A stretch of DNA of 64,000 nt from an uncultured Acidobacteriota bacterium. Lineage in GTDB: Bacteria; Acidobacteriota; Terriglobia; Acidiferrales; UBA7541. Made by a program: the position numbers and the translations under genes. Below the pieces are notes generated by a model. The model was not told the DNA's origin. It saw only the letters and a list, made by a program, of their open reading frames with translations, and did no database searches. Of this stretch, positions 37,688 to 60,227 are shown one piece after another. Each line of letters begins with the position of its first letter. Positions within the stretch are counted from its first letter, which is position 1. The stretch lies in contig CAWDRE010000001.1 of the NCBI GenBank assembly GCA_963804655.1, positions 311,747 to 375,746 of the forward strand, written 5' to 3'.

Positions 37688-38253
37688 TGCAAGGAATAGC
37701 GGGGCAGGAATTCCCGTGGAACGTCGGCCAGCTTTGAGAATTTCGCGTCCTTATCCGAAACCAACGGATTTTCGATGCACCAAGCGATGTTCAAATCAGG
37801 ATCGCTCCACAACACGCCGTGCTCGCTGGCCGGATCATAGAAGTCGCTACACTTATACAGGAACTGAACCGAGTCGGTCAGGGCCACGAACCCGTGCGCA
37901 AAGCCTCCCGGAATGTAAATCTGGTTATTTTCTGCCGCGGAAAGGCGAACGCTCGTCCATTTGCCGAAGCTCGGAGAACCGAGGCGAATGTCCACTGCCA
38001 CATCGAGCGCTTCGCCTTCGACCACGCGGCAGAGCTTCGCTTGCGTATGCGGCCACTGATAGTGCAGTCCTCGGAGAGTGCTCTTTTTCGAGCAGGAATG
38101 ATTATCTTGAACGAAGGAATCAGTGATGCCGAGCGCGGCGAAGCGTTCGCGGTGATAGGTTTCCGCGAGGAAGCCGCGCGCATCGCGAAAGACTTGAGGG
38201 CGAAGTTCCAACACGCCGGGGAGGTTCGTCTCGATCTTTTCCAATGGAATCAC
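37684..38253 (-). CDS. rfbC: dTDP-4-dehydrorhamnose 3,5-epimerase
   Basis: DARGFLAETY, LRGLHYQ, KLCRVVEGEALDVAVDIR, GFAHGF and YDPASE. Confidence 0.95.
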   Translation of the reverse strand: MIPLEKIETNLPGVLELRPQVFRDARGFLAETYHRERFAALGITDSFVQDNHSCSKKSTLRGLHYQWPHTQAKLCRVVEGEALDVAVDIRLGSPSFGKWTSVRLSAAENNQIYIPGGFAHGFVALTDSVQFLYKCSDFYDPASEHGVLWSDPDLNIAWCIENPLVSDKDAKFSKLADVPREFLPRYSLQ

Positions 38254-38317
38254 GCGTTCATCAGAATCATCGCGACGACTTTAGCAGAAGTCATAAATGG
38301 GTTGTAGCAGCGCGAAA

Positions 38318-40134: not shown

Positions 40135-40375
40135 TTTCCCTCTTTCTGCCGAAGCCGAGAATTCAGGGTTGAATTTAGCTTATACCCAACCGTTTGCACC
40201 GCACAGTCCTGAATTATGGACACGCCGCATTTCAGCCCCTGTTCTGACGTGCGCTGAGTTGATTGTAACTTCGCTGTTCCTGGTGGGCTCAGCCGAAGCG
40301 AACCTGGAATCGCCGCAACCGGCGCAAGAGGCCGTTCAACACCTGCGCCGGCACGGTGCCGACGTGCACCTAGGT

Positions 40376-41317: not shown

Positions 41318-41925
41318 TCTGGAATTTCCCTCACTGGAAGCGCCGGACCGAATCGGCGACTTCTCACTTGTTTTCAACGCAGGCCGAACCAGCAACATCT
41401 TAGCAAGGCCGAACCCAAAGGGCTTGAATAACAACACGTTGAGAAAGGCGTCGCCCAAGCCGGAGTCTCACGCCTCGCTGAAAGCATGGATGGGTCGCTC
41501 CACTAGGGGTACCGAGCTCGAAGCGAAAACCGTAAATCGTAAGGAAGAGTGGCGCCAATCGCAAGGTTTAGAGTTCGATTCGAGCAAGCCGCATCGTCAA
41601 TTTCGAGGGTCGGGCTAAACCGTTGATTCTCCATCACTCTAATGTCTGGTGCCCGGTATTCCCTCGCAAAAGCTAGAACGCGGGAGGGCGTGGACTCAAA
41701 TTAGCGCCAATCGTTGGGCGTCTTCGCCTCCCGCATTTATTCGTACAGGTATTCCGGCGCGAAACAGCGCACTAAGTCGCACTCGCCAAAGAAGTAAGAC
41801 TACCTGTACACGCGCGACGGTCAGGTACGCGATAGGCCGCGTGAACAGGCGAAGAGACTTGAACCATCTCGGTTCCTCTGACCAGTAGTTGCGCCCCGCC
41901 TTCGCTCTCCATACTGCTCCGTGAC

Positions 41926-44900: not shown

Positions 44901-45480
44901 CGGAACCGGCCTGGCCGCAACAAGGCTGTTGGGGCTCAGCACCTCGAGTCTCAGCTTCGGAAATGTGAATGTCGGCAGCAATAGCTCGCTGAGCGCAGTA
45001 TTGACGAACAACGGCAACGCCAACGTCACGATTTCCAGCGTGGGCGTCACTGGAGCAGGCTTCAGCGCGAGCGGCGTCACTGCCAGCGAAGTGCTAACGC
45101 CAAATCAATCCGTAACCGTGACGGTTACGTTCGCCCCGGGAACTGCCGGAGCGATAACGGGAAGCATCAGCATCGCCAGCAACGCCACGAATTCACCGGC
45201 AACAATCAACGTCTCCGGCACAGGCGTTGCAGCGACTCCGCACACAGTCGCGCTCGCGTGGACCGCCAGCACGTCCACGGTATCGGGCTATAACGTTTAC
45301 CGCGGCACCACGCCGAACGGGCCGTACCCGACTAAGTTGAACCCGTCGCTCGTCACGACCGAGCAATTCACGGATTCCAATGTCACTTCGGGTATCACGT
45401 ACTACTACGTAGTCACCGCGGTTGACTCGAGCAACGTGGAAAGCGTGGATTCGAACCAGGCCACGGCGGTCATTCCGTAG
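41926..45480 (+). CDS. giant surface lipoprotein: about 10 choice-of-anchor-D/ASH-like Ig-fold repeats plus a C-terminal fibronectin type III domain
   Basis: Lipobox LSSC. Units of about 100 aa follow the pattern L..sP.sv.FG.v.vG.s..qtvtLTN.G.a.ltis.a..sG.GFs..g...P..l.aGqs..f...FaPt.aGa.tGs..i.SNa..SP..i.LsGtG. The tail VALAWTASTSTVSGYNVYRG...YYYVVTAVD is FN3-like. Confidence 0.85.
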   Translation: MRAHARNYASRVPDSRLQPEVTRAGSPKSIVLLTTLAMVLAIVGLSSCAGYTSAAKTTTGDPGAGVLSASVTSLSFGSVAVGNTATQSVTVTNAGTATVNISQATMTGAGFTVIGGNPSGTIPVGQSSTVQVQFAPTTAGAITGSLTVISDASNSPLTVSLSGTGTQTGLSISPSAVTFGNVVVGQSSTQSIELTNTGTTNVVINVATVTGTGFGISGLSLPKTLTGGQSLSFSVQFAPTTAGAATGSIVFTDNAPTSPQTVTLVGSGVSTSSTLTASPGSVSFGNVSVGANGQQTITLTNSGNTNATISAVSSSGSGFSAVGLSAPLTLAASQSTSFIAQFAPTTAGAATGSITITSNANDPTITIPLTGTAVQGALTANPSSINFGSLLVGASGTVNVTLTNPGTASITLSQGSASGTGFSMTGLSVPATLGAGQSTTFSVKFSPTAAGAVTGTVSIFSNAPGSPLAIALSGSGTAGQPTLTIAPASVTYGNVSVGSSATQTVTLTNSGNATLTVTQASASGTGFSVAGVSLPISVNAGSSSSFTAVFAPTTAGAATGSISIVSNAPGSPAAIALSGTGIQGQLGATPASVNFGSVNVGSSGSQTITLKNSGTASLTISQATASGTGFSVSGITTPLALAAGQSTTFTAKFSPSSAGSVSGNVALVNNGPNSPINVALSGSGTATAPQLTISPASVTYGNVAVGGSAPQTITLTNPGNATLTVTQATVSGTGFSMSGATMPMNINAGGSSSFTATFAPTSAGAATGSISVVSNAAGSPAAIALSGTGTQGQLGASPASVNFGSIAVGSNGSQTITLTNSGTASITISQATASGTGFSISGITTPQTLGAGLTTTLSAKFAPTSAGSASGSVSIVSNAPGSPLTIALSGTATQPQLTATPSSAAFGSVVTGTSNSQTINLTNGGSATVTISAVTVAGTGFSTTGITAPLNIGAGGSATFNAVFAPTTAGAVTGSVTLTSNAPNSPLAIALSGTGLAATRLLGLSTSSLSFGNVNVGSNSSLSAVLTNNGNANVTISSVGVTGAGFSASGVTASEVLTPNQSVTVTVTFAPGTAGAITGSISIASNATNSPATINVSGTGVAATPHTVALAWTASTSTVSGYNVYRGTTPNGPYPTKLNPSLVTTEQFTDSNVTSGITYYYVVTAVDSSNVESVDSNQATAVIP
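43366..44607 (+). repeat. tandem duplication of a two-repeat block (624 nt + 618 nt) inside the giant lipoprotein gene
   Basis: Repeat units 5-6 (43366-43989) and 7-8 (43990-44607) are about 75-80 % identical at the protein level by eye. Other unit pairs are about 50 %. Confidence 0.7.
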
Positions 45481-45680
45481 TCTTGGCGCCAAGACAACAA
45501 GGATTTGGAAGCGAGCTAAGTACAGATTTTCAAGCAGTTTGAATGTGCGCGGAGCGGCCGGTTCGCCGCAAAATCCGCGAGCGCAACCGACGCCTGTCCG
45601 CGCGGACAGGGTTAACCCCCTGTCCCAAGTGTGTACCCCTGGCCAGTAGTTCCTGAAACCTACCCCGGCAGACAATCGCC

Positions 45681-47381
45681 GTGCTTATGACACGTGCCCC
45701 CATCCTGGAGGGAACGCGCGCGAATGCGCCGATTCTTTCACCGCGATTCTCTTTGAAATCAATCTTCCGCGGATTTTCCGTAACCTGCGCGCTGGCTGCG
45801 ATTCTGATTACGTCCGGCTGCGTCGGCGTTACTGGTAAAGGTGCCGGAAACGCAGGAAGCACTGCGATTACACTGGGGCTCTCGCCAAGTTCGATAAGCT
45901 TTGGAACTCTTACCGTCGGTCAAAGCAGCACGAAGACAGTCACTTTGACGAACACGGGCACCGGAATTCTGACGATCTCTGGAATTTCAGTCACAGGTCC
46001 TGGTTTCACAGCCTCCGGACCACACCTGCCGATCGCATTAAGCGCGGATCAGAACACAACTATTAGCGTTCTCTTTAAGCCAACTTCCAGCGCCGCAGAT
46101 ACGGGAACGATTACGATCACCAGCAACGCCTCGGAACCCAGCATGGCCGTTGCTCTAAGCGGGACCGGGACCGCGGCGGCGACATCCATTCTGAGCGTGT
46201 CCCCATCTTCGATTGCTTTCGGTAGCGTAGCGGTCGGCAGTGAAGTCACGAAAACGGTGCAGTTGGCGAGCACCGGTACTGGAAGCGTGACGATTTCTGG
46301 AATGACTTTCTCAGGTGCGGGCGTGAGTGTCACCGGCTTGGCGCTGCCTGCTACTTTGGCGGCCGGCAAAGACGCGAATCTCACGGTTATCTACAAGCCC
46401 ACTTCCGCGGGAACGCTGGCAGGTTCGGTTTCAATCGCAAGCAATGCTTCCGACCCTTCCGCGGCAGTCGGCCTAAGTGGAACAGCTACCACTTCACCTA
46501 CGTCCGCGCTGACGGCAACGCCCTCGTCCATTACGTTCGGTAATGTCGTGGTGGGGACAGAATCATCTCAGACGATTCGCTTGGCAAATTCAGGCACTGC
46601 GAGCGTAACTGTTTCCGGGCTTGCGCCTTCCGTTGCGACCGTGAGTGTTTCGGGGCTGACGATTCCAATGACGTTGGCTCCAGGAGCGAGCGCGAATTTC
46701 ACCGCGGCATTTAAGCCCACGGCCGCGAGCAGCGTTTCCGGCAAAATCACCGTAACCAGCAATGCATCGGACGCTTCGATGCCCATCAACTTAACGGGCA
46801 CCGGTCAAACCGCCGTGATACAGCTCACCGCCAGCCCGACGAGTGTGAGTTTTGGCAGCGCGACGACGGGATCGACAAATGCGAAACAAGTGACGGTCAC
46901 CAACACCGGCAACGAAAACGCGATCATTTCAAGCGTCACGGTCGCGGGGACCGGCTTTAGCCTCGGCAGCGCGGGAACCGGTGTAACTCTGAATCCAGGT
47001 CAATCGCAGACGTACACAATCGACTTCGATCCGAAGACTGCGGCCAGCGCGACGGGGACCTTGTCTATCGCGAGCAACGCGCCAAGCTCACCGATGAAGC
47101 TGGCCCTCGCTGGCACGGCGGTCGCGCCTTCCACCAGCCACAGCGTGGCTCTGAGCTGGGATCGCAGCACGTCAACAGTCCTGGGCTATTTCGTGTACCG
47201 CAGCTCGAAGCCCAGCGGCCCGTATGCAAAGATGAACTCTTCCGCTGACTCCAGCACGTCGTATTCAGACAGCACCGTGGCGAGCGGCCAAGTTTACTAC
47301 TACGTAGTCACTGCGGTGGATTCCACCAACATCGAAAGCTCTTACTCCAACCAAGTCTCCGTCACGATTCCCACGAATTAA
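45681..47381 (+). CDS. second surface lipoprotein: about 4 choice-of-anchor-D/ASH-like repeats plus a C-terminal FN3 domain
   Basis: Lipobox-like ITSGC, the same repeat pattern as the upstream gene, and the tail VALSWDRSTSTVLGYFVYRS...YYYVVTAVD. Confidence 0.85.
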   Translation: MLMTRAPILEGTRANAPILSPRFSLKSIFRGFSVTCALAAILITSGCVGVTGKGAGNAGSTAITLGLSPSSISFGTLTVGQSSTKTVTLTNTGTGILTISGISVTGPGFTASGPHLPIALSADQNTTISVLFKPTSSAADTGTITITSNASEPSMAVALSGTGTAAATSILSVSPSSIAFGSVAVGSEVTKTVQLASTGTGSVTISGMTFSGAGVSVTGLALPATLAAGKDANLTVIYKPTSAGTLAGSVSIASNASDPSAAVGLSGTATTSPTSALTATPSSITFGNVVVGTESSQTIRLANSGTASVTVSGLAPSVATVSVSGLTIPMTLAPGASANFTAAFKPTAASSVSGKITVTSNASDASMPINLTGTGQTAVIQLTASPTSVSFGSATTGSTNAKQVTVTNTGNENAIISSVTVAGTGFSLGSAGTGVTLNPGQSQTYTIDFDPKTAASATGTLSIASNAPSSPMKLALAGTAVAPSTSHSVALSWDRSTSTVLGYFVYRSSKPSGPYAKMNSSADSSTSYSDSTVASGQVYYYVVTAVDSTNIESSYSNQVSVTIPTN

Positions 47382-47696
47382 TCACTGTCTCGTTGCGCTC
47401 AAGGTTTTGGGCAGTCATGCGCCGAACCTGCAATTCGGTACGGTGCATCCGCAAGCCTCCTCAGGAAATCGTTTGAACCGGGATATTTTCGTCCGCTTAA
47501 ATCGGCGGCGAGCGGCGCCTCACCGGTCATTCACTCAGTCCTGGCTCCAGCGTTGTTTTTGCTCATGGTCATGTTAACGTGACGATAGACATAAGGAGAA
47601 TCCGGCCGCAGCCCTATGGCAATGTCCTGTTGAAGACAGCATTTTGGCGATGTTAGTAGGGATGTTCGACGGACGCGCTGCAAACCAACGAGAATA

Positions 47697-48803
47697 ATGT
47701 TTGGTGCGAGAATCCCGGGCTTAATTTGCGTGTTAGTGCTGTGCGGAATATTGGTGGCCGGTCTCACGCCATTCCGACGGCCTCTGAACGCCGTGACGTG
47801 GCTCGGCAACGAGGATGGTCTTCGTTTCGGCAGGTACGGAACAGTCTGGAGCTCCGGCCAATTTCACGCGGCAGGTGCGCCGAATGAAACTTCTTGCAGT
47901 CTCGAGATTTGGGCGCAACCTGCTTTCGCTAGCGCCTCGAGCACTATCCTCACTTTTTATGCGCCGGGGAATCCTATGCAACTCTCGGTGCACCAATATC
48001 ATTCGCTCGTCATATTGAAGCGCGAGAACCACGACGACTTGCGCCGTACCCAGATTATCGGCGTTGCGGACGTTTTCCACCCGGCAAAACCCGTGTTCCT
48101 AACCGTCACTGCGGGACCGCAGAAAACCTCCATCTATGTTGACGGAACTCTGGCGAGGTCGTTCCCTTTGTTTCGAATGGGCAACGATTGCGCAGGTCAA
48201 CTCTTAATCGGCACCTCGCCCATCACCGATGACAGTTGGCCGGGCGATTTACGAGGCCTCGCGATTTACGATCGCGACCTCACTGCCGAGGAAGCTCTGC
48301 GGCATTTTCAGACGTGGACGACTCAGGGACGGCCTGAAATTTCTGAAAACGTAAGCCCAGCGAGGGTATATCTCTTTGACGAGCGATCCGGAAACGTCGC
48401 CCATGATGCTGCGCGTAGTGGAATCGACCTGTACATTCCAAAGCGCTTTTCACTCTTGCATCAGAAATTTCTGGAGCCTTTCTGGCAGGAATTCAGGCCC
48501 AGACGCAGCTATTTTATGGACATCCTAGTGAATGTCGCGGGCTTCATTCCGCTCGGCTTCGTATTCTTCGCGTACTGGTCATCCGTGCGGCCGATCAAGC
48601 ATCCAGCAATAGCGACCGTCGCGCTGGGACTGGCTGTGAGCCTGACGATCGAGGTCCTCCAATCGTATCTTCCCACTCGTGATTCCGGCACCACAGATCT
48701 GATCACCAATACGTTTGGAACGTTCATTGGCGTGAGATTGTGGTCTCTCAAAATCTTCCGCGGCTCACTCGCAAAAATCGGCTCGGTCACAGCGCCTCGA
48801 TGA
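47697..48803 (+). CDS. membrane protein: N-terminal anchor, LamG/concanavalin-like domain, C-terminal VanZ-like domain
   Basis: The middle region has LamG-type hallmarks (SLEIWAQP...LTFY...HQYHSLVIL...IYVDGTL...WPGDLRGLAIYDRDLT). The C-terminus DILVNVAGFIPLGFVFF...SLTIEVLQSYLPTRDSGTTDLITNTFGTFIG is VanZ-like. Confidence 0.72.
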   Translation: MFGARIPGLICVLVLCGILVAGLTPFRRPLNAVTWLGNEDGLRFGRYGTVWSSGQFHAAGAPNETSCSLEIWAQPAFASASSTILTFYAPGNPMQLSVHQYHSLVILKRENHDDLRRTQIIGVADVFHPAKPVFLTVTAGPQKTSIYVDGTLARSFPLFRMGNDCAGQLLIGTSPITDDSWPGDLRGLAIYDRDLTAEEALRHFQTWTTQGRPEISENVSPARVYLFDERSGNVAHDAARSGIDLYIPKRFSLLHQKFLEPFWQEFRPRRSYFMDILVNVAGFIPLGFVFFAYWSSVRPIKHPAIATVALGLAVSLTIEVLQSYLPTRDSGTTDLITNTFGTFIGVRLWSLKIFRGSLAKIGSVTAPR

Positions 48804-48995: not shown

Positions 48996-50438
48996 CTAAG
49001 CTAGCCTCGGTGTGTGAATTGCACCCGGAACTTCCTGCAAATTTGTCGCGCTCAGCAGGAGTTCCCGATGTATGGAGACGAGCGCCGCCTGCATGTCCTT
49101 CCGTGCAACCACAAAAGAGAAGCTGGATTGAGCGGATCCCGGGACGCTGGCCAGCACGTTCAGATTCTCGGCGTCCAAGGCGCTCAGCGCGTGTTCGATA
49201 AGTCCACGCAGTCCACGCGTACTCTCACCGACCACGGCGACGATTGCCACGGACGCATTGAGATCGATGCGTTCCACCTGCTTGTCCGCCAACTCCTGCG
49301 CGAACTCGCGCCGCAGCGCGTCAACTCCGGATTCGGCGACAGCGGATGAAACAATGATGCAGACGTCGTTTGGCGAATTAGCTGATTGCGGAACCAGCCG
49401 GACATCAATCTGTGCCGCCTCGGCGGCGGAGAGCGCGCGAGACAAGACGCTGTGCGAGACCATGTCGTCCCGACTGCGAAGGGTTATCAGCGCGACATCT
49501 CCGTTAGCAGCCAGTGCCTTTACTTCTAAGCCTCTGCACGGGCCAGCGGCTGTAATCTTGGTCCCCGGGCGATCGGGGGCAAACGTGTTGCGGATCGAAA
49601 GCGGGATATTGTGCTGGATTACCGGCCGCAAAGTTTTCGGATGCAGAACCTTGGCGCCCAATTCAGCAAGACCGGAGGCTTCGCTATACGACATCTCGAG
49701 TATGGATCTCGCACCCGGCACCAACCTTGGATCAGCTGTGAGGATGCCGTCCACGTCCGTCCATAGCGTGACTTCGTCCGCATTGATGGCCGCGCCTAGA
49801 ATCGTCCCGGAATAGTCCGAGCTGTTGCGGCCGAGAGTCGTGAGCGCCCCATCCACCGTGGCGCCGATGAATCCGGTTACGACGGCTACCGTGCCCTGAC
49901 GCAACAGGGGCCGCAAGCGCGCTTCGCAGCGTTCGCGTGTGAGGTCCATACGAGGCTCGGCGGATCCGTGGCAGGAATCGGTGACGACGAGCTCTGTGGC
50001 CTCGATTGCCTCGCTGGCCACTTCTCGCTCCGCCAGCGCCGCGGCAACCAGCGGCGCCGAAAGGCGCTCGCCCAAACCCACAATCGAATCGCGTGCGCGC
50101 AGCGTAAGTTGGCGTCTGAGAATAGCGTCCTGGCAGAGCGCGTTCGCCGCTTGAAGAAGTTCGTGCAGTTTGAGGCTGACGCTTTGCAGTCGCTCGGCGG
50201 AAGTGATCAGCGCATTTGCCGCAGATTCGTGCCGTGTGCGCAGTTCCTCGAAAATTTTGGCGACCATACCGCGATGGCCCAGCTCGGACTGGTTGGCAGC
50301 GTCAACTAGCTTGTTCGTCACGCCACTCATCGCGGATACCACCACCACCACGTCACTCTCGCTTGCAGCGGCGCGCACGATATCGGCGACTCTCTCGATG
50401 CAGGAAGCGTCCCCGACCGACGTTCCGCCAAATTTCAT
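48996..50438 (-). CDS. aspartate kinase with two C-terminal ACT domains
   Basis: MKFGGTSVGD, VVVVSAMSGVTN, TTLGRNSSDYSG and tandem ACT-like regions. The start is ambiguous. ATG 50438 gives the canonical N-terminus. In-frame ATG 50582 would overlap the upstream ATP-grasp stop as ATGA. The ORF opens at 50669. Confidence 0.85.
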   Translation of the reverse strand: MKFGGTSVGDASCIERVADIVRAAASESDVVVVVSAMSGVTNKLVDAANQSELGHRGMVAKIFEELRTRHESAANALITSAERLQSVSLKLHELLQAANALCQDAILRRQLTLRARDSIVGLGERLSAPLVAAALAEREVASEAIEATELVVTDSCHGSAEPRMDLTRERCEARLRPLLRQGTVAVVTGFIGATVDGALTTLGRNSSDYSGTILGAAINADEVTLWTDVDGILTADPRLVPGARSILEMSYSEASGLAELGAKVLHPKTLRPVIQHNIPLSIRNTFAPDRPGTKITAAGPCRGLEVKALAANGDVALITLRSRDDMVSHSVLSRALSAAEAAQIDVRLVPQSANSPNDVCIIVSSAVAESGVDALRREFAQELADKQVERIDLNASVAIVAVVGESTRGLRGLIEHALSALDAENLNVLASVPGSAQSSFSFVVARKDMQAALVSIHRELLLSATNLQEVPGAIHTPRLA

Positions 50439-50578
50439 GACGCGAAGCGGTTTCTTCGCGTTTCCGTGCGGCTGCGGATGGCTGGAGCGATGCTGGTGGA
50501 TCACGAGTGAACCAACGGCGCGCCTGGCTTGCGGATCACCGGAACCGAGCAACGAATCGCGATTTTTCAAGGGAGCGG

Positions 50579-51868
50579 TCATGAGCGAGAGGCTCGCGCC
50601 ATCGAGAACTCCTGCAGGCGACTTTGCTGAGAGTACCAAGCGTGTTGCTTCCGCCGGATGCGCACGCAAGCGCGGATCAAGTCGGGTTTATCCCACGGAA
50701 CATCGTGATAAGCGGATTGCAAGAACGCGCTGGTCGGATCCCTGAGCCACTCCTGTGGAAACAGCGCGATCGTGTCGTCGTTCGTGACTTTTGCGGCGGC
50801 GCGAACTGGCTCTCCGGATATCGCCGAATACAGCGCCGCGGGAATATCGCGCCCGAGTCCCAGCGTCAGGTGGCCCACTTGCGTCGCTCGTGGATTGATC
50901 TCAATCAGGTGGGCGTTGCCGGTGCGCTCTTCGAGCATAAAATCTAATCCATGCATTCCAGAAAGCTTGAGCCTGCGAACGATCTTCTCTGCGGCGCTGG
51001 ACATTTCTGAATTCTCAATCACGCGCAGGACAGTGGCATGCCCGGACGAGTCGACTTTATTGATGACTTCAAAATTAAGGCACGCCAGGACTTCGCCATT
51101 CCAGCAAGCGACAGCGCTGGTGGCTTCACGTCCCGAAATGAGCGACTGGGCGTTAACGATGGCGCGGCGGCGGCGAAGTGACGGCCAGACCAGAGTCGCG
51201 TCTCGATCAATTAGGGCGCGCTTGGCAGCCCGCGCAATCAGTGGAGGAGCTTGCAAAACTCTCAGCGCGCGCTCGGCTTCTTCCAAGCTACGAACGACTC
51301 TAACTCCGACGCCACCCGATGTTCCGTCTGCTTTCAAGACTGTCGGAAGTCCTGCGCGCGCGATCCACCTCTTCAGGTCGTCGCTGTCGCGGATTACTGC
51401 GGTCTTCGGGACTCGGATGCCTTCGCTCCCGGCAATCTCCATCAGTGTGGTTCGCGCCTTCACGACCGAGAAACTTTCGGGCGCTCCGAGGGAACGTTGG
51501 ATCAATTGGCAAACTGGCGCTCCAGCGACGCCCTTGCCGAGTTTTTGCCCGTAGAGAGTGTGCAGGTGCTGAGTTGCCAAGTCGTCACCCGGGACGATTA
51601 CGTCCGGCTTGGCGGCAGCGATCGCTTCGCTTAGCGAGTTCAACGGGGAGAGCCCCCGAAAAGGGTGCGTTGCGCGGACCACGCCGGTCTTGTCCAGAGG
51701 GTGATTCGACGGGCAGACCGCGTCCACCGTGAACCCCGCGTTCGCCAAAGCAACAACGAGCCGGGCGGTAGGGAACCAACGAGCAGTCGTAGCAATCAGA
51801 ACCGTTGGTTTCACGGCGCTGCGCACCTCCAGAGGACGTGTGGACTGCCAGCGATTTGACCGCAGCAC
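50579..51868 (-). CDS. ATP-grasp domain ligase, substrate unknown
   Basis: Pre-ATP-grasp N-terminus (KPTVLIATTARWF), LPTVLKADGTSGGVGVRVV and GMHGLDFMLEERTGNAHLIEINPR. GTG at 51814, preceded by GGAGG, is a likelier start than GTG 51868. Confidence 0.8.
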   Translation of the reverse strand: MLRSNRWQSTRPLEVRSAVKPTVLIATTARWFPTARLVVALANAGFTVDAVCPSNHPLDKTGVVRATHPFRGLSPLNSLSEAIAAAKPDVIVPGDDLATQHLHTLYGQKLGKGVAGAPVCQLIQRSLGAPESFSVVKARTTLMEIAGSEGIRVPKTAVIRDSDDLKRWIARAGLPTVLKADGTSGGVGVRVVRSLEEAERALRVLQAPPLIARAAKRALIDRDATLVWPSLRRRRAIVNAQSLISGREATSAVACWNGEVLACLNFEVINKVDSSGHATVLRVIENSEMSSAAEKIVRRLKLSGMHGLDFMLEERTGNAHLIEINPRATQVGHLTLGLGRDIPAALYSAISGEPVRAAAKVTNDDTIALFPQEWLRDPTSAFLQSAYHDVPWDKPDLIRACVRIRRKQHAWYSQQSRLQEFSMARASRS

Positions 51869-52501
51869 GAGGTAGCTGGTCAGACGCGACAGTGGTACGG
51901 TGGCTTGGATGGCAATCCGTGGGCCAAAGGAGGGCTAATTGAACGATCCGACCTCTCTTGTAACTAACACATAATAAGCCGCTTACCTTAAAGAAACCAC
52001 TTTTCTGCAGAGTGTCAGTGCCAGAAGCCAATGAAAAGACTTGCTCTAAGTGGCAAATCCATTCCCAGTGGGCCCGGAATTAGAGCACAGCATGCAAGCG
52101 GCGGTCGGCAATCGCCTTCACCGCCCGGTGGTTACATTCAGACTAGCAAGCGAACGGCATCACGCAGAGAATTGACCGCACGGGCGCCACGAATCGTCCG
52201 CCTAGGATCCGCTAGTAGGCCAGACCCTCCACCAAGGACGGAGCGCTTTGCCCATCGACGGCGGCGTGAGCTTGCCTCGCAAGAAACCTGCGATGAATGC
52301 TTCTCCGGATTGCGAGTTCGACCCGTGGTTTGTGACTCTCAATCGCAGGACGGATGCGCGATTCCTGAGATCGATAGGCCTAAAGTCGAAGCGATTTCGA
52401 TCTGAGCCATCCGCGAGGCGGCATCGGGCTGCCTAACTTTAGGTCGCCACGAAAAAATCCCTCTATCTCGTTCGTGAACTGCAGTCCTGGGGAAATCCTG
52501 C

Positions 52502-54038
52502 TTAGCGTTTCGCGGTTAAATTTCGGGAATTATGTTTATTGGAATCGACAGAATCGGGCGTCGCTTTCAATCGTCTCACCGTCCGCTTTGCCTGAGCCAG
52601 CATCGCTGGATGTTGTACGAGAAACTCATCGCGGAACTCGGAGAGAGCTCTCCGTACGAACACTTTTCCGCCATAAATGAATCCTGCCCGTCGCGATGTA
52701 GATAAGAGCGGCTTACGTCGGTGCAATTGAACACGAGCGGTCTGTGCCGGATGAAGAGTCATTTCAATCTCGATGCATTGGTCGCGGCGGCCGATCGGAA
52801 CGTTGCTCCCGTTGAGAACCAGGAAAGTGACAGAGTCCATGTCTGCTTCCTGCTTAAACAAGCGATACGAAAGCCGCAGCGGTGAGTTATTGGTGATACA
52901 GAATGTATCGGTAAAGAAGCGGACGTCCCAACATTCAGAAGATACGGCACGTTTCCAACAAGTTCGTTGCAGCGTTTCGGTCAGCGAACCCCAACGAAGA
53001 TCAGGCTCGCATTCATTCAACCGGTTTGCCAGCGCCTCCAGTGATGGAAAGCCCTTCTGAAAGAAGTCGTGGTGCTCCACGATGAATGCTGGCCTGCCTA
53101 AGAACAGATCAAGTAGAAATGGGAAAGAGGATTTCAAATAGTGCCTGAGAAACACTGGAAAGCCGCAAATCCTGTTGAAGGAAGGCAGAAGCAGCTCGCA
53201 TAGCGTGACCGGAGCCGCATCACGATCGAGAGGAAAACGCGATGAGTTGATGGCTGCGAGAAAACCGCTTGAGCTGAGCCCACGAAAACTCGCTGTCGAG
53301 AAACGCCCTTGTGGAAAGACCATGATCGGCTCAAAACCAAGTCCAGTTCGAATCTCTTGACGCTGCATTCGACGCATGGCGAGGATGGACTTCTGCTCCA
53401 AATAGTCTCCGTCGCGACTTCCGTATTCATTGTTCGTGTGGTCACAGCCATGAACGCAAACAGAAAACCTTCTCCCCCGCCTTGTTAAAGAAAGAGGCCG
53501 CGCCTCGGGAGGTACGTGCCTGGTTCCACGGAATAAAGGCCACGGTCGCGGAATATCGATGCTGCCTCATCGATTCGAACAGAGTGGTGAAATTAAGCAT
53601 GCCGTACTTGCGACGGAGCACAGGGTCATCAATAATCAAACGCGAGCCGTTGTAGCCACCCTGCCAACAAAAATCTCCACAAGCTGCGCGCACGAACATG
53701 AGCACCGGCAAAAGGGAATCGTAATGCTCTTCAATATCATCCTCGTGCATGACGCGCAGATCGGGGTTAGGAATGACCGCGATTGTCGAAACGAACAAAT
53801 TGCAAGTCTCAAGCCGCAAGGATAAGAACATAGGCTTGGCGGAAACTGTGATGACGGGTACGATGCTGTTCGTTCCAGGTAAGAAGACGTCGCACGTCGT
53901 CGCGCTTTTCGGTTGTGGATAGCTTGCCCCGGATAATTGCCGCGAGAAGCGCTTGCCAGCGACTGGAAGCTCGCGCTGGCCCGCTTCGGTCACGGTCTCC
54001 GTTGTGATCATTGAGTCGCCGCTCAGCCATCGCAGCAT
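52502..54038 (-). pseudogene. NodB/DUF2334-like putative polysaccharide deacetylase-fold protein, frame-shifted
   Basis: ORF 53442-54038 ends ...LIIDDPVLRRKYG...AFIPWNQ...FFNKAGEKVFCLRSWL*. Shifting one base gives FSVCVHGCDHTNNEYGSRDGDYLEQKSILAM..., which is the frame of ORF 52502-53401. The break is near 53464-53478. The DD and H-x3-H motifs fit NodB-type metal sites, which is inference. ORF 54023-54316 may be a further N-terminal piece. Confidence 0.55.
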
Positions 54039-54608
54039 TCATCATGTGTTCTTGCGGCGATTCCATAAAGGAAGATCGTTCGAAAACTGAGAAGTTTTTC
54101 CCGGACCGATTTGCGCGAATCCTCCTCGCGATGGAGAGCGGCGAGCGTGTCCGCAGACAAGGCGACGGCGGCAGGCGGGGCGGCGTTCTCGGGACATGCC
54201 AAGAACATCTCGACAGTAGGGGAATTCGAGAATCGAACGTTCGCGCCAAGAAAAGACGCAAAGGCGGCCAAGTTGGAGTCGCTGGATTTGCTTCGGTTAC
54301 TTGACAGGATGAGCAATGGTCATTCCTTTTCAGTCATTCACACCCAACGCCCCCGAGCGTACGTCGCGGCACGGGGATTCTAACAAGTTTGTGAGCGCAG
54401 GCCGCCTAGTTCCCTTAATACACTCCGCAAGTAGTTGTCACGTTATCGGACGCATTCACTTTTTCTCCGAATCATCGAGCTAAGAGGAAATCACGCCAGG
54501 ATTTCGTGGTGGCCCCAAGTTTACCTGAAGTGGACATCAACGAGGATCTGCAATTTGCGAATTGCCAAGGATGGCATTCCATCTTGCGTATCCGAAATCA
54601 GTAGCTCG

Positions 54609-55031
54609 TTACGCCCTCTCGAGGTACTCAATCAAAAGCCCTTCGTGCGTGAGAAACCACGAGATGCGGCGGCCGCCAAACGCCACCGCCGGTTGGGGTC
54701 GACGGATCATGATCAAACCCCGGGCAGAAGCACCCTGCAGCACGTCTCCTAGATTGCCAACCTCGTAGCACAAATGATGCAGCCCCCCACCGCGCGCCAG
54801 AAACTTTCCGACCGGGGAGTCGGGGCCTGCCGGTTCAACTAGTTCGACGCTCGGGTCTCCGGGATGGCTCGCATAGATGAACGCTACGCGCACATCTTGA
54901 AGCGGATCGTGCCAAATTTGTGACCAGTCCGTTCCACCCAGCGCTCGGCAGAACCCTTCCATCACAGCGGCAATGGAAGCCACGACGAATCCGGTGTGAT
55001 GCAGGCGTTCATCGGATTGACTAGAAGACAT
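54609..55031 (-). CDS. VOC-fold protein (glyoxalase / methylmalonyl-CoA epimerase-like)
   Basis: LHHTGFVVASI...VELVEPAGPDSPVGKFLARGGGLHHLCYEV. Start taken at MSSSQSDERLHH (55031); the ORF opens at 55184. Confidence 0.78.
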   Translation of the reverse strand: MSSSQSDERLHHTGFVVASIAAVMEGFCRALGGTDWSQIWHDPLQDVRVAFIYASHPGDPSVELVEPAGPDSPVGKFLARGGGLHHLCYEVGNLGDVLQGASARGLIMIRRPQPAVAFGGRRISWFLTHEGLLIEYLERA

Positions 55032-55293
55032 GGGCGTAAAGGATGGAGTTGAGGCATGGTTGTACGAACGTGCAAATGTTCCAGCTGGCAGCCAGAAACT
55101 GTTCTTTCCGCGGGATACTGAAAGGCGAAGACGACACCTTACTGTCTCCGCAGGCCAGGAGCCGGGTGCGCTCCGATAAGACAATGTCCGCGAAGATGAG
55201 AGTGCAAGCGCGCGGGACGGTCAGTTGCACCGACAAATTTACGTCAACTTTCAACAGACTTTCGACTCCCGTTACGGTTCATCGAGCATCGAT

Positions 55294-55776
55294 CTATCTG
55301 CGGGAAACTGGCTTCAACCGCCTGGAAAACTCCTTCAACGGAGTGTCTGGCCACAGCGGCAGGCCGCACTTGGCAATGGGGACTGCCGGGTTGCCCTGGA
55401 CTAACGTCATCGCCGGTACCGGGCTTGTTACCACACTCCCTGCGGTAACCACCGCGCCGTCACCAATCTCCACGTCCGGAAGAATGATCACGCCCGGGCC
55501 GATGAAGGCTTGTTTCCCAATCCGTACGCCGCGGCGCGATTCCTTAAAATGTGCAATGACGATGACCCCGATTCCGATAAAGGCGCTGTCATCTATGGTT
55601 ATCAGATGAGGGTAGCTGGTCTCGAGAACTACATTGTAGCTAATCCAGACATTCCTTCCGATGGTTACGCCGCGAGCACGATGCAACAAAACGCGCAGAC
55701 TCTGACCGCCCGGCAATATCATAGTGAACATCTGAAGGATTCTGTTCAGGAATCCCCGAAGTGGATTCTCCTTCAT
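55294..55776 (-). CDS. left-handed beta-helix (hexapeptide repeat) acyl/acetyltransferase
   Basis: Hexapeptide runs: IGRNVWISYNVVL, IDDSAFIGIGVIVI, IGKQAFIGPGVIILPDVEIGDGAVVTAGSVV. ATGA overlap with the upstream ACP gene (55773-55776). Confidence 0.85.
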   Translation of the reverse strand: MKENPLRGFLNRILQMFTMILPGGQSLRVLLHRARGVTIGRNVWISYNVVLETSYPHLITIDDSAFIGIGVIVIAHFKESRRGVRIGKQAFIGPGVIILPDVEIGDGAVVTAGSVVTSPVPAMTLVQGNPAVPIAKCGLPLWPDTPLKEFSRRLKPVSRR

Positions 55777-56027
55777 TCGTTTCCTTGTAATATCTTGCCA
55801 CGTTGCAACAGGTACCGCTTCACAGAATCAAAGGTTTCTAGTTCCAACAACTCTTGCAGGTCAATCTGTACACCGAATTCTTCGTCCAGAACGGCCAGAA
55901 GGGTAACTCCTCGAAGCGAATCCCACCCGGCCATGGATTCGAATTTGGCAGTCCTAATCTCATCACGAGTTGCACCAGGTAAGGCTGATGCAAAGCAGCG
56001 CATCAAGCGATTGTCATCATCATTCAC
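55773..56027 (-). CDS. acyl carrier protein
   Basis: 84 aa with the phosphopantetheine-attachment context MAGWDSLRGVTLLAVLDEEFGVQI (DSL motif). Confidence 0.8.
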   Translation of the reverse strand: MNDDDNRLMRCFASALPGATRDEIRTAKFESMAGWDSLRGVTLLAVLDEEFGVQIDLQELLELETFDSVKRYLLQRGKILQGNE

Positions 56028-56131
56028 TGGTGGATACCTCCTCTACATGGTGCGGCAGTTTCGGCGCTTTCCTTTGGAAGGAAGACCTGGATAGCCGTGG
56101 ATTTAGTTCGACAGGGCCGTCCAACAATTGC

Positions 56132-57764
56132 TCAATAAATTCCATCAAGCGGGCCATTGCGCCCTGTTGCTTGCAGCTCGAAGACAATTTCAGCGACTGC
56201 AAATTTGTCAAACAGGTACTGCAGGCAATGAAACTCAATCCGACGCGAAAAGGCGCGGCAACTCATAACCCAGGATTCTACGACAAACTGCTGCGCCGAC
56301 AACTTTCCAATCAAGACAGCAATTCTCCCCAGCTTGCCGAATTTATCCTGATAAGAAACTGTGACCAAGTACGTCCGGGAATCCTGGAGAAGTCTCGACC
56401 AAGCCGCTTCATTATACCGATTGCCATTCAAATTAAATTGGTTGGTCTTGTTTATCAATTCAAATGCACGCACGTCTTCGTCCCGCTTACCCAACTGGAA
56501 CGTCAAGCGCCCATTCGCATTTTGCAGGAAGTCGTCCAGCGCGTTATCCTCTGCTGCTGTGCCTTCCCGAAATACGCTGGAGTCACGGATGCTCTGCAGT
56601 CGAAGAGAGTCTTCTTCAGAAATAGAATTTTTCCCGAAACGATTTCGCAGGTGACCCAACAGCTCCCACAAAGCAGGATAGTCGTCCTTCGGAAATACTA
56701 GACATTCCATCTCCGGAAAAGCGCCCTGCACTTCAGCGACTTCCATCGGGCTGTCATCGACAAACACCACAGTATCTGGCATGACATTCCATTTCTTTAG
56801 GATATATTCGACCGATTCCGACTTCCGCCTCCAGTTGGCTTCGATCGGGAAAATGTTCGTCTTTCGAAATGAGCAGATCATCTCGTTCGAAAGCCTGATC
56901 AACGAGGGCAGCGTCATTCTTACTAGCAGCGGCAATCAGGATCCCAGCACTGGCAAGAGAGGCCAGGAACTGCTGGTAAATCCCATGAAGCTGAGCATGC
57001 TCCTCAAGGTGCCAATGGATCCCTTCCACTCCCACTTCACCCAGGATGCCTGCCCACAACGTATCATCCAAATCAGTAATCAGCCCTTTCATAGGTTGAT
57101 GCCGACATATTAGCTTTGCCAAAAGCTCTCCAATCACGGAGGCATGAAAAGTCTTGTAGGGAAAACCCTGCGTGATCTCGGTTCGGAGGTCGAACCTCTT
57201 GGATAGGGGCGACACTTCATCTAGACGCTGCCCACTCACTACCAACACCTGGTGGCCAATAGATATGGCCTCGGCAAAGGTGGCGAGATTCCTGCGGAGC
57301 TTCAACTCGAAAACGCTGCTTTGTTGTGTACTGGTATAGAAGAGGGGAGGCAGTGGCAATGTAGGTAGACAAATAGAGGTGGGAAGGGTCAGCGCGATTC
57401 TCTGCAACGCACGCCTTAGTCTTTCGAGACTGTGGTTCGCGGACTCCACAATATCCGGCAACTGCTCAACGTGCCAACCGCCCAAAGATCGCAGACCCAG
57501 CCGCGAATCGAAATCTGACCATTCGATCACCACCGCAAGTGCGTCGTGCTCTTCGGGCCGCAACCGCTCCAAGGTCCCGGCCAAGTCACCGAACAAGCCC
57601 GAACTTAACTCGACTCGACAAGTCGGACAAAGATTGCTCAGATGCGCGGCGAGAAAGGTTTCCAGATGAAGGGGAGTGAAACCACAAGCCAATAAGACTC
57701 TCAGCGGACGCGCGTTCTTGTCGATCGGTTGTTTAAGACGTTCAAGCGCGTCAACCAGATTCAT
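56132..57764 (-). pseudogene. FkbH-like HAD-IIIC phosphatase/acyl-ACP loading enzyme, interrupted by a 1-nt frame shift
   Basis: ORF 56754-57764 carries GLITDLDDTLWAGILGE and ILIAAASKND. ORF 56132-56935 carries FPIEANWRRKSESV, VVFVDDSPMEVAEV and ELINKTNQFNLNGNRY. The frames meet at CAT TTT CC[C] G ATC GAA (56843-56855). Confidence 0.8.
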
Positions 57765-58049
57765 GCGCGATCTACCGTCCCGGAGACGCTCGATAGAAGC
57801 GCCCTTCCATCACCGCAAGCGGCCAATTCTCCTCCGTGTACTTTTCGGCAGCTTCCCACATCACTCACGCAAACATTGCGGTTTCTAGTGCGTGACTCCT
57901 TCGAGGGCGCGTTCTACCGATTCCCATCGCTCAAGCAAAAATCGTTCAAACTATGCAATCGGCTCCCAAGCCAGCGATAAAATGCGATAGCGGTCGAAAC
58001 CCAATTAGCCGAATCACAAGGTAACACAATCAGCGAATCTATCGGACTT

Positions 58050-58679
58050 CTACAACGGGTAGCGGCCACGTGCCCAAATAATCGAGCGATTGACCATCGA
58101 GAGAGGGAAGATGGTCGGGCGCACAAAATCAACGAAGAGCACCACGCGATAGGCATCATTGTCGTTCCAGACTTCATGCTCGTTGCTATCGTCGAAAATC
58201 ATACTCTTACCTTCCTTCCAGGCGCGCACGTCATTTCCAACGCGAATTCTGCTGCTTCCTTCAGGCTCTGGAATCATAAGTCCAAGGTGATAGCGCAGCA
58301 CCCCTTTATATGGCCCTCGGTGCGGAGCTATATACTTTCGAGGTGCCAGAATCGAGAACATCCCGCTCTTCATTCCCGGGATACAATGCAAGAGCCGGTC
58401 CGTCTCCGGACATTTTGCGCAGTTCTCCTTGTTCTTGTTGCCGAACGTGTAGAACATGAATGTCTTCCATTGGTCACCTTGAGTTAGTGCTCTCTGCGCC
58501 TTCGAAATGTCCTGGAAATTCGGAATCTGTTCGCGATGCACCATCAGCGCGTCCAACTCCTTACGGATAGTCTTCCATTCCGCCTCAATGCTAGCCACCC
58601 AAGGAAACTCCTCGGTCTCGAAAAAAGTCTTGTCCCCATCACGGTAGAACAGAACTTTCTCTACAATCTCTCGAACCAT
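58050..58679 (-). CDS. aspartyl/asparaginyl beta-hydroxylase family (cupin, 2-oxoglutarate/Fe(II) type) protein
   Basis: FPWVASIEAEWKTIRKELD, IAPHRGPYKGVLRYHLGL, WKEGKSMIFDDSNEHEVWN and RVVLFVDF. Confidence 0.85.
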   Translation of the reverse strand: MVREIVEKVLFYRDGDKTFFETEEFPWVASIEAEWKTIRKELDALMVHREQIPNFQDISKAQRALTQGDQWKTFMFYTFGNKNKENCAKCPETDRLLHCIPGMKSGMFSILAPRKYIAPHRGPYKGVLRYHLGLMIPEPEGSSRIRVGNDVRAWKEGKSMIFDDSNEHEVWNDNDAYRVVLFVDFVRPTIFPLSMVNRSIIWARGRYPL

Positions 58680-59093
58680 GTTCCCTCCTTTCAGCGCTCG
58701 GCGACATATCCTGCACTCGTCCCCCGAAATGATTATCAGAACTGTGGTAGCTCCATTTTGCTAGAGCGAAATAGCCATCGATAGGCATTCGGGTGCACGA
58801 TGCACATCTCGGGGACGCCGCAAAGTGGCTATTCTAGACCGATTAACCCGTTTTTGTCTGCCACCGAGGCCGCAGCTCTCTAAAACGAATTATCAACGTG
58901 GCTCGCCGTTGGAATCGGTCATGCTGATCGTCGCACGAAAAGTAGGACACCCCCGTAGGCGCTGCTGCCATGAAGCCATCGGTGACCCGTATCTATTGAA
59001 TTCCGGCGAGAAATCATTTCAAGATTTGCTCCCAAACCAAGTCGCGGCATGACTTGCCCTGGATCGAAAGGATCAAGAACGCGGCGGAGGACC

Positions 59094-60227
59094 TCATTTT
59101 CCCGGGGCTACGAGCGCAGAATCGCCGGTGACGTTATCCAGACGAATTGGCTTCGATTCGAAAAATCTCTTCAAGTTCAGAAACGGCTTTTCCAACAGAT
59201 TCCAGGAGAGCGCGGCTAGCGCAAAACTTGCGACGAAAATAATTGGGAGCGGCAAGTAGGGATTCCGGTCCAGGTGAAGAGTTTGCACGATGCCGAAAGG
59301 AATTTTGTGCAACAAGTAGAGCCCGTAGCTGATGGTCCCGGTATAAATCAGGAATCGGTTGTTCATCACCGCTTGGAGCCATTTTCGTTTCGAAAACATC
59401 GAAACGTAGATGAATGAGGCCGAGGCTAACGCAGTGAAGGAAAAAACAATCCATCTGGCATGATGGGCTTCCATTCCAAATGCCAGCGCTGCCGCCGCCA
59501 CAAGCAATATCCAGGCCCGTTTTAAGAATTTCGCAGCAACAAAATTCTCGGCCCGGACGAGCAGCGCCAGCAATGCTCCCGCCATCAGGCCGTCCAAGCG
59601 ACAAAACACATTTGTATAAAGGTCTACCCGATGCAGCGCCAGGTAATAGCGCAGCGCCGGAGAAATACATATCTCAGCAATTGCGATTCGCCGCAGCTGC
59701 GTGCGGGAACAGAATCGCACCACCAGCGGCCAAACCGCATAAAACTGCTCCTCAATGGCGAGCGACCAGGTGACACCCAACGGCCCCGCCGCGTTCGTTG
59801 AAACCGGAAGCAGGAAATTCTGCAGGAATAAGGGAAACGCCCACCAGGGCGACGAGGTCCGCAGCACGTCTTGGTATTCCGATCGATTCAGAAACCGGAC
59901 AACAACGAACATGAAGAAAATCAGCGAATAATAGAGAGGCCATATTCTGAGGCAGCGCCGAACGTAGAAATTCTTGAAATACCCCCCCGATTGCTTCGTA
60001 TTCAGGAGAATTCCGGTGATCAGAAATCCGGAAAGCACAAAAAAAAGATCGACGCCCATCCAGCCATCAGCAAATATCCGATCCAAATGAAACACCGGAT
60101 ACTTCGGACTAATGTTATGGAACATTACGATTAGAATCGCCACGCCGCGAACAGCATCGAGTTGAGGGATTCTTCGCTGCAATCTTTCACCTGCGTGGAG
60201 CGGCATGGTGCAATCGCCGTCCGCCAA
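59094..60227 (-). CDS. membrane acyltransferase family 3 (OafA/WecH-like O-acyltransferase)
   Basis: IPQLDAVRGVAILIVMFHN, GWMGVDLFFVLSGFLIT, WSLAIEEQFY and about 10 predicted TM helices. Confidence 0.85.
   Translation of the reverse strand: MADGDCTMPLHAGERLQRRIPQLDAVRGVAILIVMFHNISPKYPVFHLDRIFADGWMGVDLFFVLSGFLITGILLNTKQSGGYFKNFYVRRCLRIWPLYYSLIFFMFVVVRFLNRSEYQDVLRTSSPWWAFPLFLQNFLLPVSTNAAGPLGVTWSLAIEEQFYAVWPLVVRFCSRTQLRRIAIAEICISPALRYYLALHRVDLYTNVFCRLDGLMAGALLALLVRAENFVAAKFLKRAWILLVAAAALAFGMEAHHARWIVFSFTALASASFIYVSMFSKRKWLQAVMNNRFLIYTGTISYGLYLLHKIPFGIVQTLHLDRNPYLPLPIIFVASFALAALSWNLLEKPFLNLKRFFESKPIRLDNVTGDSALVAPGK

Follow-up and report, generated by a model that had tools for sequence, protein, structure and literature searches.

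A candidate FkbH-linked cassette for N-acyl editing of surface polysaccharides in an uncultured acidobacterium

The DNA analyzed here, a stretch of 64,000 nt referred to below as the window, comes from an uncultured Acidobacteriota bacterium of the lineage UBA7541 (GCA_963804655.1, contig CAWDRE010000001.1, positions 311,747-375,746). Seven genes at 52.5-60.2 kb run in the same direction on its minus strand, as an earlier note written from the sequence alone had described and as the list of open reading frames (ORFs) confirms. Five of them encode an FkbH-type enzyme, a dedicated acyl carrier protein (ACP), a left-handed beta-helix (LbH) acyltransferase, a VOC-fold protein and a large protein that we call X. 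On balance, we consider these five (52.5-57.8 kb) to be a functional unit that edits, in the cytoplasm, the N-acyl group of an amino sugar to be built into a surface polysaccharide. Across relatives, X and LbH are the constant core of such loci, and the carrier-protein donor module is exchangeable, being either FkbH-ACP or a set of ACP, SDR, AMP-ligase, LuxE and LuxC genes. As written in the window, the genes for FkbH and X are broken by four frameshifts, which are very probably consensus artefacts of a strain-mixed assembly.

The five cassette genes

The FkbH-type enzyme (56020..57764, minus strand; ~580 aa when read through) consists of an N-terminal domain, a HAD-IIIC phosphatase domain and a C-terminal cysteine domain, and it belongs to the FkbH domain family. 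The earlier note had called an FkbH-like HAD-IIIC enzyme at this position; the TIGR01686 domain is indeed present, but the gene is not a single ORF, being split at about 56861 and shortened at about 56148. Overlapping ORFs at 56754-57764 and 56132-56935 match positions 3-79 and 81-311 of the TIGR01686 profile and, as written, score 54 and 145 bits, each under the cut-off of 146.65. Once the frameshifts are corrected, the 580-aa protein reaches 212.1 bits on the same profile and 53.5 bits on the HAD-IIIC profile TIGR01681 (cut-off, 35.75). It keeps every residue that is conserved in at least 95% of 71 homologues; retained residues are D231/D233 (DxD), K314, D336/D337 (DD), NKTNQFN and S501-C502-R503. 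In work on OzmB, the C-terminal cysteine of FkbH reportedly carries the glyceryl intermediate. The true C-terminus reads ...NGPLMEFIEQLL...EVSTSE, and the corrected stop codon overlaps the start codon of the ACP gene (GTGAATGA).

The ACP (55773..56027, minus strand) is 84 aa long, scores 29.8 bits on PF00550 (cut-off, 20.8) and has its phosphopantetheine serine in the motif GWDSL. Between strains it shows no non-synonymous divergence (pN = 0), with synonymous divergence (pS) of up to 0.12. Its stop codon overlaps the LbH start as ATGA, a coupling that the earlier note had spotted and that is confirmed here. Given both overlaps, FkbH, ACP and LbH are therefore all translationally coupled. No FkbK/FkbI dehydrogenase, FkbG methyltransferase, FabH-like tetronate synthase, polyketide synthase (PKS) or nonribosomal peptide synthetase (NRPS) was found among the scanned window ORFs. 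Likewise, no companions of methoxymalonyl or tetronate pathways were identified in the gene clusters that recur in at least 4 of 80 related FkbH loci; ten of these clusters were scanned against Pfam and proved to be glycan genes. As the dehydrogenase and methyltransferase of the methoxymalonyl route are missing, the acyl group is most likely a plain glyceryl.

The LbH (hexapeptide) acyltransferase (55294..55776, minus strand; 160 aa) scores 46.7 bits on PF00132 (cut-off, 27) and reaches no NCBIfam equivalog, the best score being 65 bits against a cut-off of 300. The VOC-fold protein (54609..55031, minus strand) resembles methylmalonyl-CoA epimerases: it scores 67 bits on PF13669, and its nearest annotated relatives and PDB sequence matches are glyoxalase I and methylmalonyl-CoA epimerases, yet it fails the methylmalonyl-CoA epimerase equivalog TIGR03081 (52 bits; cut-off, 115). 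Its start is uncertain, relatives being 124-140 aa long and the longest ORF extending to 55184. Profile searches matched the family calls of the earlier note for the ACP (PP-binding, PF00550; 7e-7), the hexapeptide protein (Hexapep; 2e-12) and the VOC protein (Glyoxalase_4; 2e-18), and also for the two remaining genes of the island, a cupin (Asp_Arg_Hydrox; 2e-53, 181 bits) and a membrane acyltransferase-3 (AT3) protein (Acyl_transf_3; 2e-23).

Protein X (52502..54316, minus strand; ~604 aa) is obtained by a three-frame reading. In the window it consists of three ORFs, broken by the indels at 54037 and 53469, and all three frames have to be joined to read it through. An AlphaFold model built from 75 sequences (mean pLDDT, 90.9; pTM, 0.91) predicts an N-terminal domain, a CE4/NodB-like deacetylase barrel and a C-terminal beta domain. 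Searched against the PDB with Foldseek, the model matched human NDST1 first (E = 1e-7, 447 aligned columns, 10% sequence identity), followed by PelA, ArnD and many CE4 deacetylases of chitin, peptidoglycan and xylan; NDST1, PelA, ArnD and more than 20 CE4 structures were all matched at a probability of 1.00 with E values of 1e-7 to 4e-3. Residues invariant in the 75 sequences are IIDD (224-225), H283-GCD-H287 and H409, and by inspection they fit the CE4 metal and catalytic motifs (TFDD, HxxxH and LxH). X is thus a predicted deacetylase by modeled fold and motifs, its kinship to CE4 lying at the level of fold and motif only. The family is large: 184 homologues are found in a 90%-clustered database, none of them functionally named and the named ones being called "hypothetical protein," and a profile search retrieved 2,815 representatives of 50% identity clusters, of which 1,589 had E values of 1e-30 or lower. 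A search of plasmids with X gave no match. Outside the barrel, at residues ~546-560 (window ~52650-52700), a C-terminal helix bears a nearly invariant R-R-x-L-S-E-F-R-D; a partner protein might dock at the LSEFRD motif.

Linkage in relatives and a proposed route to N-glyceroyl sugars

Species-representative genomes were scanned with the repaired FkbH, which yielded 587 relatives, and the best 80 loci were examined, with presence of the other genes counted by tblastn with the window proteins. ACP adjoins FkbH in 70 of the 80. LbH is present in 18, VOC in 17 and X in 13, and every locus with X has LbH too. The earlier note had proposed conservation of the FkbH-ACP-LbH trio as a check; it is conserved in 18/80 loci, and 15 of the 17 FkbH proteins closest to that of the window are among them. 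Where FkbH is linked to LbH, its identity to the window protein is highest (median, 56% versus 45.5% for the others). When metagenomes were scanned from the side of X, 25 loci had at least 1.5 kb on each side, and 22 of these contained an LbH homologue, directly adjacent to X in 12; FkbH was present in 9 of the same 25 loci and an AMP-ligase in 6. X homologues (36-71% identity) also occur without FkbH, beside ACP-SDR-AMP-ligase-LuxE-LuxC modules (L082, L083, L090 and L092), and the unannotated gene of 148-174 aa next to X in these LuxCE-type loci is an LbH homologue at 36-40% identity. The earlier note saw no synthase or glycosyltransferase partner for the trio; the gene that it listed last, X, turns out to be the key one, through its pairing with LbH. 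The FkbH-to-X module is widespread.

The surroundings of these loci point to glycans. Neighboring ORFs of the 80 loci were clustered and cluster representatives scanned against Pfam; recurring neighbors are GT4, GT2, an AMP-ligase with a second ACP, GNAT/FemAB and Polysacc_deac_1 proteins. Relatives are also surrounded by Wzy_C, a MurJ-like flippase, O-antigen ligase, amino-sugar genes (DegT, GFO and LbH) and deacetylases. A full-length FkbH homologue, annotated as "HAD-IIIC family phosphatase," is encoded on plasmid pPfer1 of the cultured acidobacterium Paludibaculum fermentans P105 among genes for an O-antigen-ligase family protein, GNAT, GT2, a polysaccharide deacetylase, further glycosyltransferases, MBOAT and GT4; X was not detected on this plasmid. 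Because the FkbH-LbH relatives sit in polysaccharide clusters, ACP-dependent glyceryl decoration of a surface glycan is the best reading, in agreement with the suggestion of the earlier note. The lipid target that it had offered beside the glycan found no support.

Related modules occupy the same chromosomal neighborhood in other genomes. In L092 (9001-16030), X and LbH lie with LuxC, LuxE, AMP-ligase, SDR and ACP genes in a setting like that of the window (FMO, CGS, HTS, AMP-ligase and a TPP enzyme), and in L071 (7846-15500) the FkbH-ACP pair alone lies between an ATP-grasp gene and FMO/CGS. Since both are found in the neighborhood that spans 52.5-64 kb in the window, this spot is a hotspot for such modules. 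A variant was seen in about 15 loci, mostly of Planctomycetota but also of Bryobacteraceae (L020, L021, L023, L028, L029, L038, L047, L049-L051 and others), where a MaoC-dehydratase/SDR fusion follows FkbH-ACP in place of LbH-X; this fusion would be expected to convert glyceryl-ACP to a lactyl-type or other reduced C3 acyl-ACP.

We propose the following route. FkbH enzymes have precedent for making glyceryl-S-ACP from 1,3-bisphosphoglycerate (PMC7489565), and from what is known of the family, FkbH of the cassette would dephosphorylate this substrate on its HAD domain and pass the glyceryl group by way of the conserved cysteine to the ACP. The epimerase-like VOC protein may then invert C2 of the thioester. 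X, as its fold, motifs and linkage suggest, would act as a metal-dependent, CE4/NDST-like de-N-acetylase on a HexNAc-type sugar that could be nucleotide linked or undecaprenyl linked. LbH could then take the glyceryl group over from the ACP and place it on the amine thus exposed, so that an N-glyceroyl sugar results. Inspection of the translations revealed no evident signal peptide or membrane segment in the cassette proteins, and the reaction is therefore probably cytoplasmic. The glycosyltransferases for the acceptor and the export genes would be located elsewhere in the genome.

Frameshifts, flanking genes and alternative readings

Two of the four frameshifts lie in FkbH, an extra base at 56861 and an extra T at 56148 that cuts the protein short, and two in X, a missing C at 54037 and an extra G at 53469. 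An NCBI contig from a metagenome-assembled genome (L081; Candidatus Acidiferrales, GCA_049284175.1) matches the window at 99.3% identity across 11.8 kb, and the alignment has two gaps only, both of them the X frameshifts. The whole island recurs, with the same gene order and location, in four long ENA contigs (L084-L087). All seven genes are intact in L086, with an FkbH of 580 aa and an X of 604 aa; those of L085 are intact apart from a 543-aa FkbH with the same near-terminal extra T as in the window. Intact copies of X (598-604 aa) are present in L081, L085 and L086, and intact copies of FkbH (543-580 aa) within L085-L087. The assemblies of L084-L087 have breaks in other genes (P450, HTS, CGS, FMO and AT3), as in noisy long-read consensus sequences.

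Substitutions between strains are restricted to 53.0-57.7 kb, from FkbH to X, with virtually no difference in the flanks, where the cupin, AT3, ATP-grasp and aspartokinase-like genes lie. At least two haplotypes are present, A (L084 and L085) and B (L086 and L087), in genomes that are otherwise near-identical. Between them, pS ranges from 0.05 in FkbH to 0.18 in X and is close to 0 in the flanks, and pN/pS is 0-0.23 in all five cassette genes; purifying selection therefore acts on each of them. Where the indels lie, the window switches between haplotypes and so reads as a mosaic of A and B. At 56861, where relatives read ...SKTNIFPIE... in FkbH, A has TCGAAA-ACGAGC, B has TCAAAG-ACGAAC and the window has TCGAAAGACGAAC; at 54037, A has GA-ACTG, B has GA-CATG and the window has GA--ATG, and L084 carries the opposite error, GACACTG. 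The FkbH-to-X sequence of the window may thus be in part a chimeric consensus, and a consensus of mixed haplotypes would gather its errors in the only polymorphic segment. If the frameshifts are consensus errors, as we hold to be very probable, then the cassette is functional in the organism. Classic slipped-strand phase variation was also considered and is unlikely, with 0 of the 4 indel sites in a long homopolymer. As a caution, polymorphic surface-glycan loci in strain-mixed long-read metagenome assemblies gather consensus frameshifts that resemble pseudogenes.

The two other genes of the island were taken by the earlier note as parts of the same system, a claim that did not survive. The Asp/Asn beta-hydroxylase-family cupin (58050..58679, minus strand; 209 aa, OlsC/LpxO-like), which JGI names "ornithine lipid ester-linked acyl 2-hydroxylase," is highly conserved: it has more than 2,000 homologues at E values of 1e-20 or lower, the best 120 at 67-90% identity, and in other Acidobacteriota homologues 83-84% identical to it have unrelated neighbors. 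It is present in 0 of the 80 FkbH loci. OafA-like AT3 (59094..60227, minus strand) is present in 8 of the 80. Like the flanks, both genes are identical between strains, whereas the FkbH-to-X segment is polymorphic. The cupin was accordingly rejected as a cassette member, and AT3 is probably not part of it either. The island is a composite, a polymorphic FkbH-to-X cassette beside two independent low-GC genes.

A distinctly improbable alternative to assembly error is that the cassette is a decaying pseudogene remnant in which all four frameshifts are genuine, possibly favored by phages that target a surface epitope. All four indels fall inside the cassette, within 4.9 kb, and none in the ~10 kb of adjacent sequence compared with five relatives; real inactivation would look alike. 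None is in a long homopolymer, and there are precedents, in that the Vibrio cholerae O-antigen N-acyl gene wbeL undergoes phage-selected loss-of-function frameshifts (PMC3441752) and cj1302 is a pseudogene in one strain of Campylobacter jejuni (PMC7099621). However, the private branch of the window holds 4 substitutions, all synonymous and 0 non-synonymous, against 3 private indels, and pN/pS is not relaxed. The window is chimeric for the two haplotypes at each site, L084 errs in the opposite sense at the same AC/CA site, and the sister assemblies are randomly broken in P450, HTS, CGS and FMO, which is typical of noisy long-read consensus. For an intact cassette, the glyceryl group could instead be placed as an ester on a sugar hydroxyl by LbH or by a membrane acyltransferase (AT3 or MBOAT), with X serving as an esterase or in trimming. 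Among the closest matches of LbH in NCBIfam and the PDB are the O-acetyltransferases WcaF and WbbJ and the maltose and galactoside acetyltransferases, O-acetyl esterases exist among CE4 enzymes, the AT3 gene lies 1.3 kb upstream in the window with counterparts in some of the related loci, and in the Paludibaculum locus FkbH is accompanied by an MBOAT protein. We nevertheless regard O-acylation as rather unlikely: the tight linkage of X and LbH is better explained by a pair that deacetylates and then reacylates, the structures that X resembles most belong to de-N-acetylases or deformylases (NDST1, PelA, ArnD and chitin deacetylases), and most loci lack AT3, which in the window does not share the polymorphism of the cassette.

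It is very improbable that glyceryl-ACP or a derivative feeds a lipid or small-molecule pathway, by way of the OlsC-like hydroxylase or of a synthase for polyketides or tetronates whose gene lies elsewhere. All characterized FkbH enzymes do feed polyketide, tetronate or NRPS pathways (PMC7489565), and the curated model closest to the cupin is the ornithine-lipid hydroxylase OlsC. Against this, no ketosynthase, FabH-like, FkbG/I/K-like or NRPS gene was found in the window or identified among the neighbor clusters that recur in at least 4 of the 80 loci (ten of these clusters were scanned against Pfam), the cupin is absent from all of these loci, and its scores on the OlsC and LpxO equivalogs (229 bits against 450 and 115 bits against 500) are far under the cut-offs. 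Several observations also weigh against the preferred reading, N-acyl editing of a surface sugar. The steps beyond the family precedent of FkbH are drawn from fold, motifs and gene linkage. The NodB-like gene of the earlier note, our X, is borne out by the structure model and conserved motifs, but it is spread over three ORFs and has no Pfam or NCBIfam match, even at E = 1; phmmer found no sequence relative in the PDB, profile-profile alignment with Polysacc_deac_1-type proteins (hhalign) gave a nonsignificant E of 0.068, and the TM-scores of the fold matches are modest, at 0.25-0.38 (NDST1, 0.36-0.38). Sequence similarity of LbH cannot tell N-acylation from O-acylation, nor ACP from CoA donors. 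With 260-310 nt between LbH and VOC and between VOC and X, the five genes are at best a candidate for a single operon, and there is no glycosyltransferase near the cassette in the window.

Known systems, genomic surroundings and meaning

With pathways of glyceryl-ACP loading of the FkbH/OzmB type, the cassette shares an FkbH domain above the cut-off, the HAD DxD, the cysteine and a stand-alone ACP directly downstream (PMC7489565). It differs from them in having no FabH-like, PKS, NRPS or FkbG/I/K genes, and its putative consumers are a small LbH protein and the CE4-like X, whose relatives lie among polysaccharide genes. Literature searches for FkbH together with O-antigen or polysaccharide gave nothing relevant, the FkbH work found being on polyketides, tetronates and NRPS, and a search for glyceroyl together with ACP gave polyketide papers only. 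The closest precedent by analogy is probably the N-glyceroyl pseudaminic acid of C. jejuni. The flagellin glycan of strain NCTC 11168 contains 5-N-(2,3-di-O-methylglyceroyl) pseudaminic acid, and the locus includes a gene with an fkbH domain, cj1302 (PMC7099621). Hitchen et al. proposed that Cj1295 strips the 5-N-acetyl group so that glyceroyl can replace it (PMC3068675); the glyceroyl pathway there is genetic and hypothetical (PMC3068675, PMC7099621). Likened by published description only, the two systems share a glyceroyl-type acyl group that replaces N-acetyl and an FkbH-domain gene in a glycan locus. The deacetylating Cj1295, however, is aminopeptidase-like, whereas X of the cassette is CE4-like, and no X homologue is described in that locus. 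The earlier note did not recognize the gene combination as a described pathway; with the glycan locus of C. jejuni 11168, it is not entirely without precedent (PMC7099621, PMC3068675).

The proposed logic of the cassette has better-known parallels. In the NodB/NodA/NodF and LpxC/LpxD systems, an amino sugar is deacetylated and then N-acylated from an acyl-ACP; LpxD is an LbH enzyme and NodB belongs to CE4. The cassette would follow the same order: deacetylation first, then ACP-dependent N-acyl transfer from an acyl-ACP that is dedicated or specific. The differences are that the acyl group of the cassette would be a C3 hydroxy-acid and theirs is a fatty acid, that its LbH protein is minimal at 160 aa, and that X is a 600-aa three-domain protein without detectable sequence similarity to NodB or LpxC. 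Human NDST1, the best structural match to X, would likewise exchange N-acetyl for another N-substituent, but in NDST1 the sulfotransferase is fused in one chain and acts on a polymer substrate in the Golgi, whereas the second activity of the cassette would reside in a separate acyltransferase. The wbeK-O genes of V. cholerae encode an ACP, an AMP-ligase and LuxC/LuxE-like proteins. This domain set is like that of the ACP-SDR-AMP-ligase-LuxE-LuxC module, which accompanies X and LbH in loci of other Acidobacteria; unlike those loci, the window has no donor module of the LuxCE type. No X-like deacetylase is known in the V. cholerae O1 system, where perosamine already has a free amine. The tetronate on perosamine and the role of wbeL in O1 have been described (PMC3441752). 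What is new here is the X family, its pairing with a minimal LbH protein and the interchangeable donor modules.

The island is AT-richer than the rest of the window, as the earlier note had estimated by hand and as sliding-window and per-gene computation bore out. Mean G+C is 0.524 for the island genes against 0.587 +/- 0.022 for 35 other genes (Mann-Whitney p = 5e-5), G+C at third codon positions (GC3) is 0.584 against 0.676 elsewhere (p = 1e-4), and the lowest 2-kb window has a G+C of 0.504 against 0.588 +/- 0.017 elsewhere, about 5 standard deviations below. The contrast is real yet modest, and with G+C lower by 6 points and GC3 by 9 points (p ~1e-4) it has the deviant composition of a horizontally acquired island. 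The low-GC stretch contains no tRNA gene, Rfam match or mobility gene (integrase or transposase), and its repeats, none of them flanking, are at chance level only; a mobile island was ruled out on these grounds. A promoter and terminator scan was uninformative, with counts no higher than in shuffled sequence.

Housekeeping genes (purH, prs, dnaB, alr, ispD and others) make up the remainder of the window. No ketosynthase, NRPS or glycosyltransferase was found among the 42 larger window ORFs scanned, as the earlier note had held, yet a complete dTDP-rhamnose set (rmlD, rmlC, rmlB and rmlA) with a further NAD-dependent epimerase/dehydratase (36758-41458, minus strand) lies ~12 kb from the cassette and provides the only other sugar-nucleotide genes in the window. 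Between this set and the island are two giant DUF1573/ASH Ig-like-repeat proteins (1184 and 566 aa) and then a LamG-plus-VanZ protein (41926-48803, plus strand), followed by an ATP-grasp enzyme and an amino-acid-kinase/ACT (aspartokinase-like) protein (48996-51868, minus strand). A similar Ig-repeat protein in L095 adjoins an exosortase (EpsH) gene. The ATP-grasp and aspartokinase-like genes overlap by 4 nt in the gene calls of relatives and are identical in all strains; the ATP-grasp gene of L095 was considered as an orthologue of the one in the window, for an argument about the insertion site, and was ruled out for lack of a tblastn match. Some 630 nt between X and the ATP-grasp gene (51869-52501) hold no convincing gene at a G+C of ~0.53, and the gap recurs in L084-L087. 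Elsewhere on the minus strand, overlapping same-strand ORF pairs at 30882-32046 (217 and 201 aa) and 18764-19866 (198 and 194 aa), mostly without a Pfam match, could be further frameshifted genes or long alternative starts, and a 939-aa protein at 27967-30786 combines HEAT repeats with a C-terminal PilZ (c-di-GMP-binding) domain.

For the FkbH-to-X cassette, the favored reading would extend FkbH/glyceryl-ACP chemistry from antibiotic assembly lines to the tailoring of glycans and offers a testable function for the large unannotated protein family X. A broader and more tentative idea, to which we give somewhat less than an even chance, is that X and its small LbH partner are general, modular machinery that edits N-acyl groups on the glycans of bacteria, following in prokaryotes the logic of NDST, with swapped donor modules. 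If so, LbH would install the acyl group offered by the plug-in, be it glyceryl in the case of FkbH or another acid in that of AMP-ligase/SDR/LuxCE modules, and such plug-ins on one deacetylase-acyltransferase core could explain unusual N-acyl groups that have been reported on bacterial sugars. Exchange of entire modules would take place at a hotspot on the chromosome and divergent haplotypes would be kept within a species, making the system a driver of surface-antigen diversity in soil Acidobacteriota. These are among the most abundant soil bacteria, and their extracellular polysaccharides shape soil aggregation while their chemistry is almost unknown; the cassette would be a first hint at N-acyl chemistry in acidobacterial glycans.

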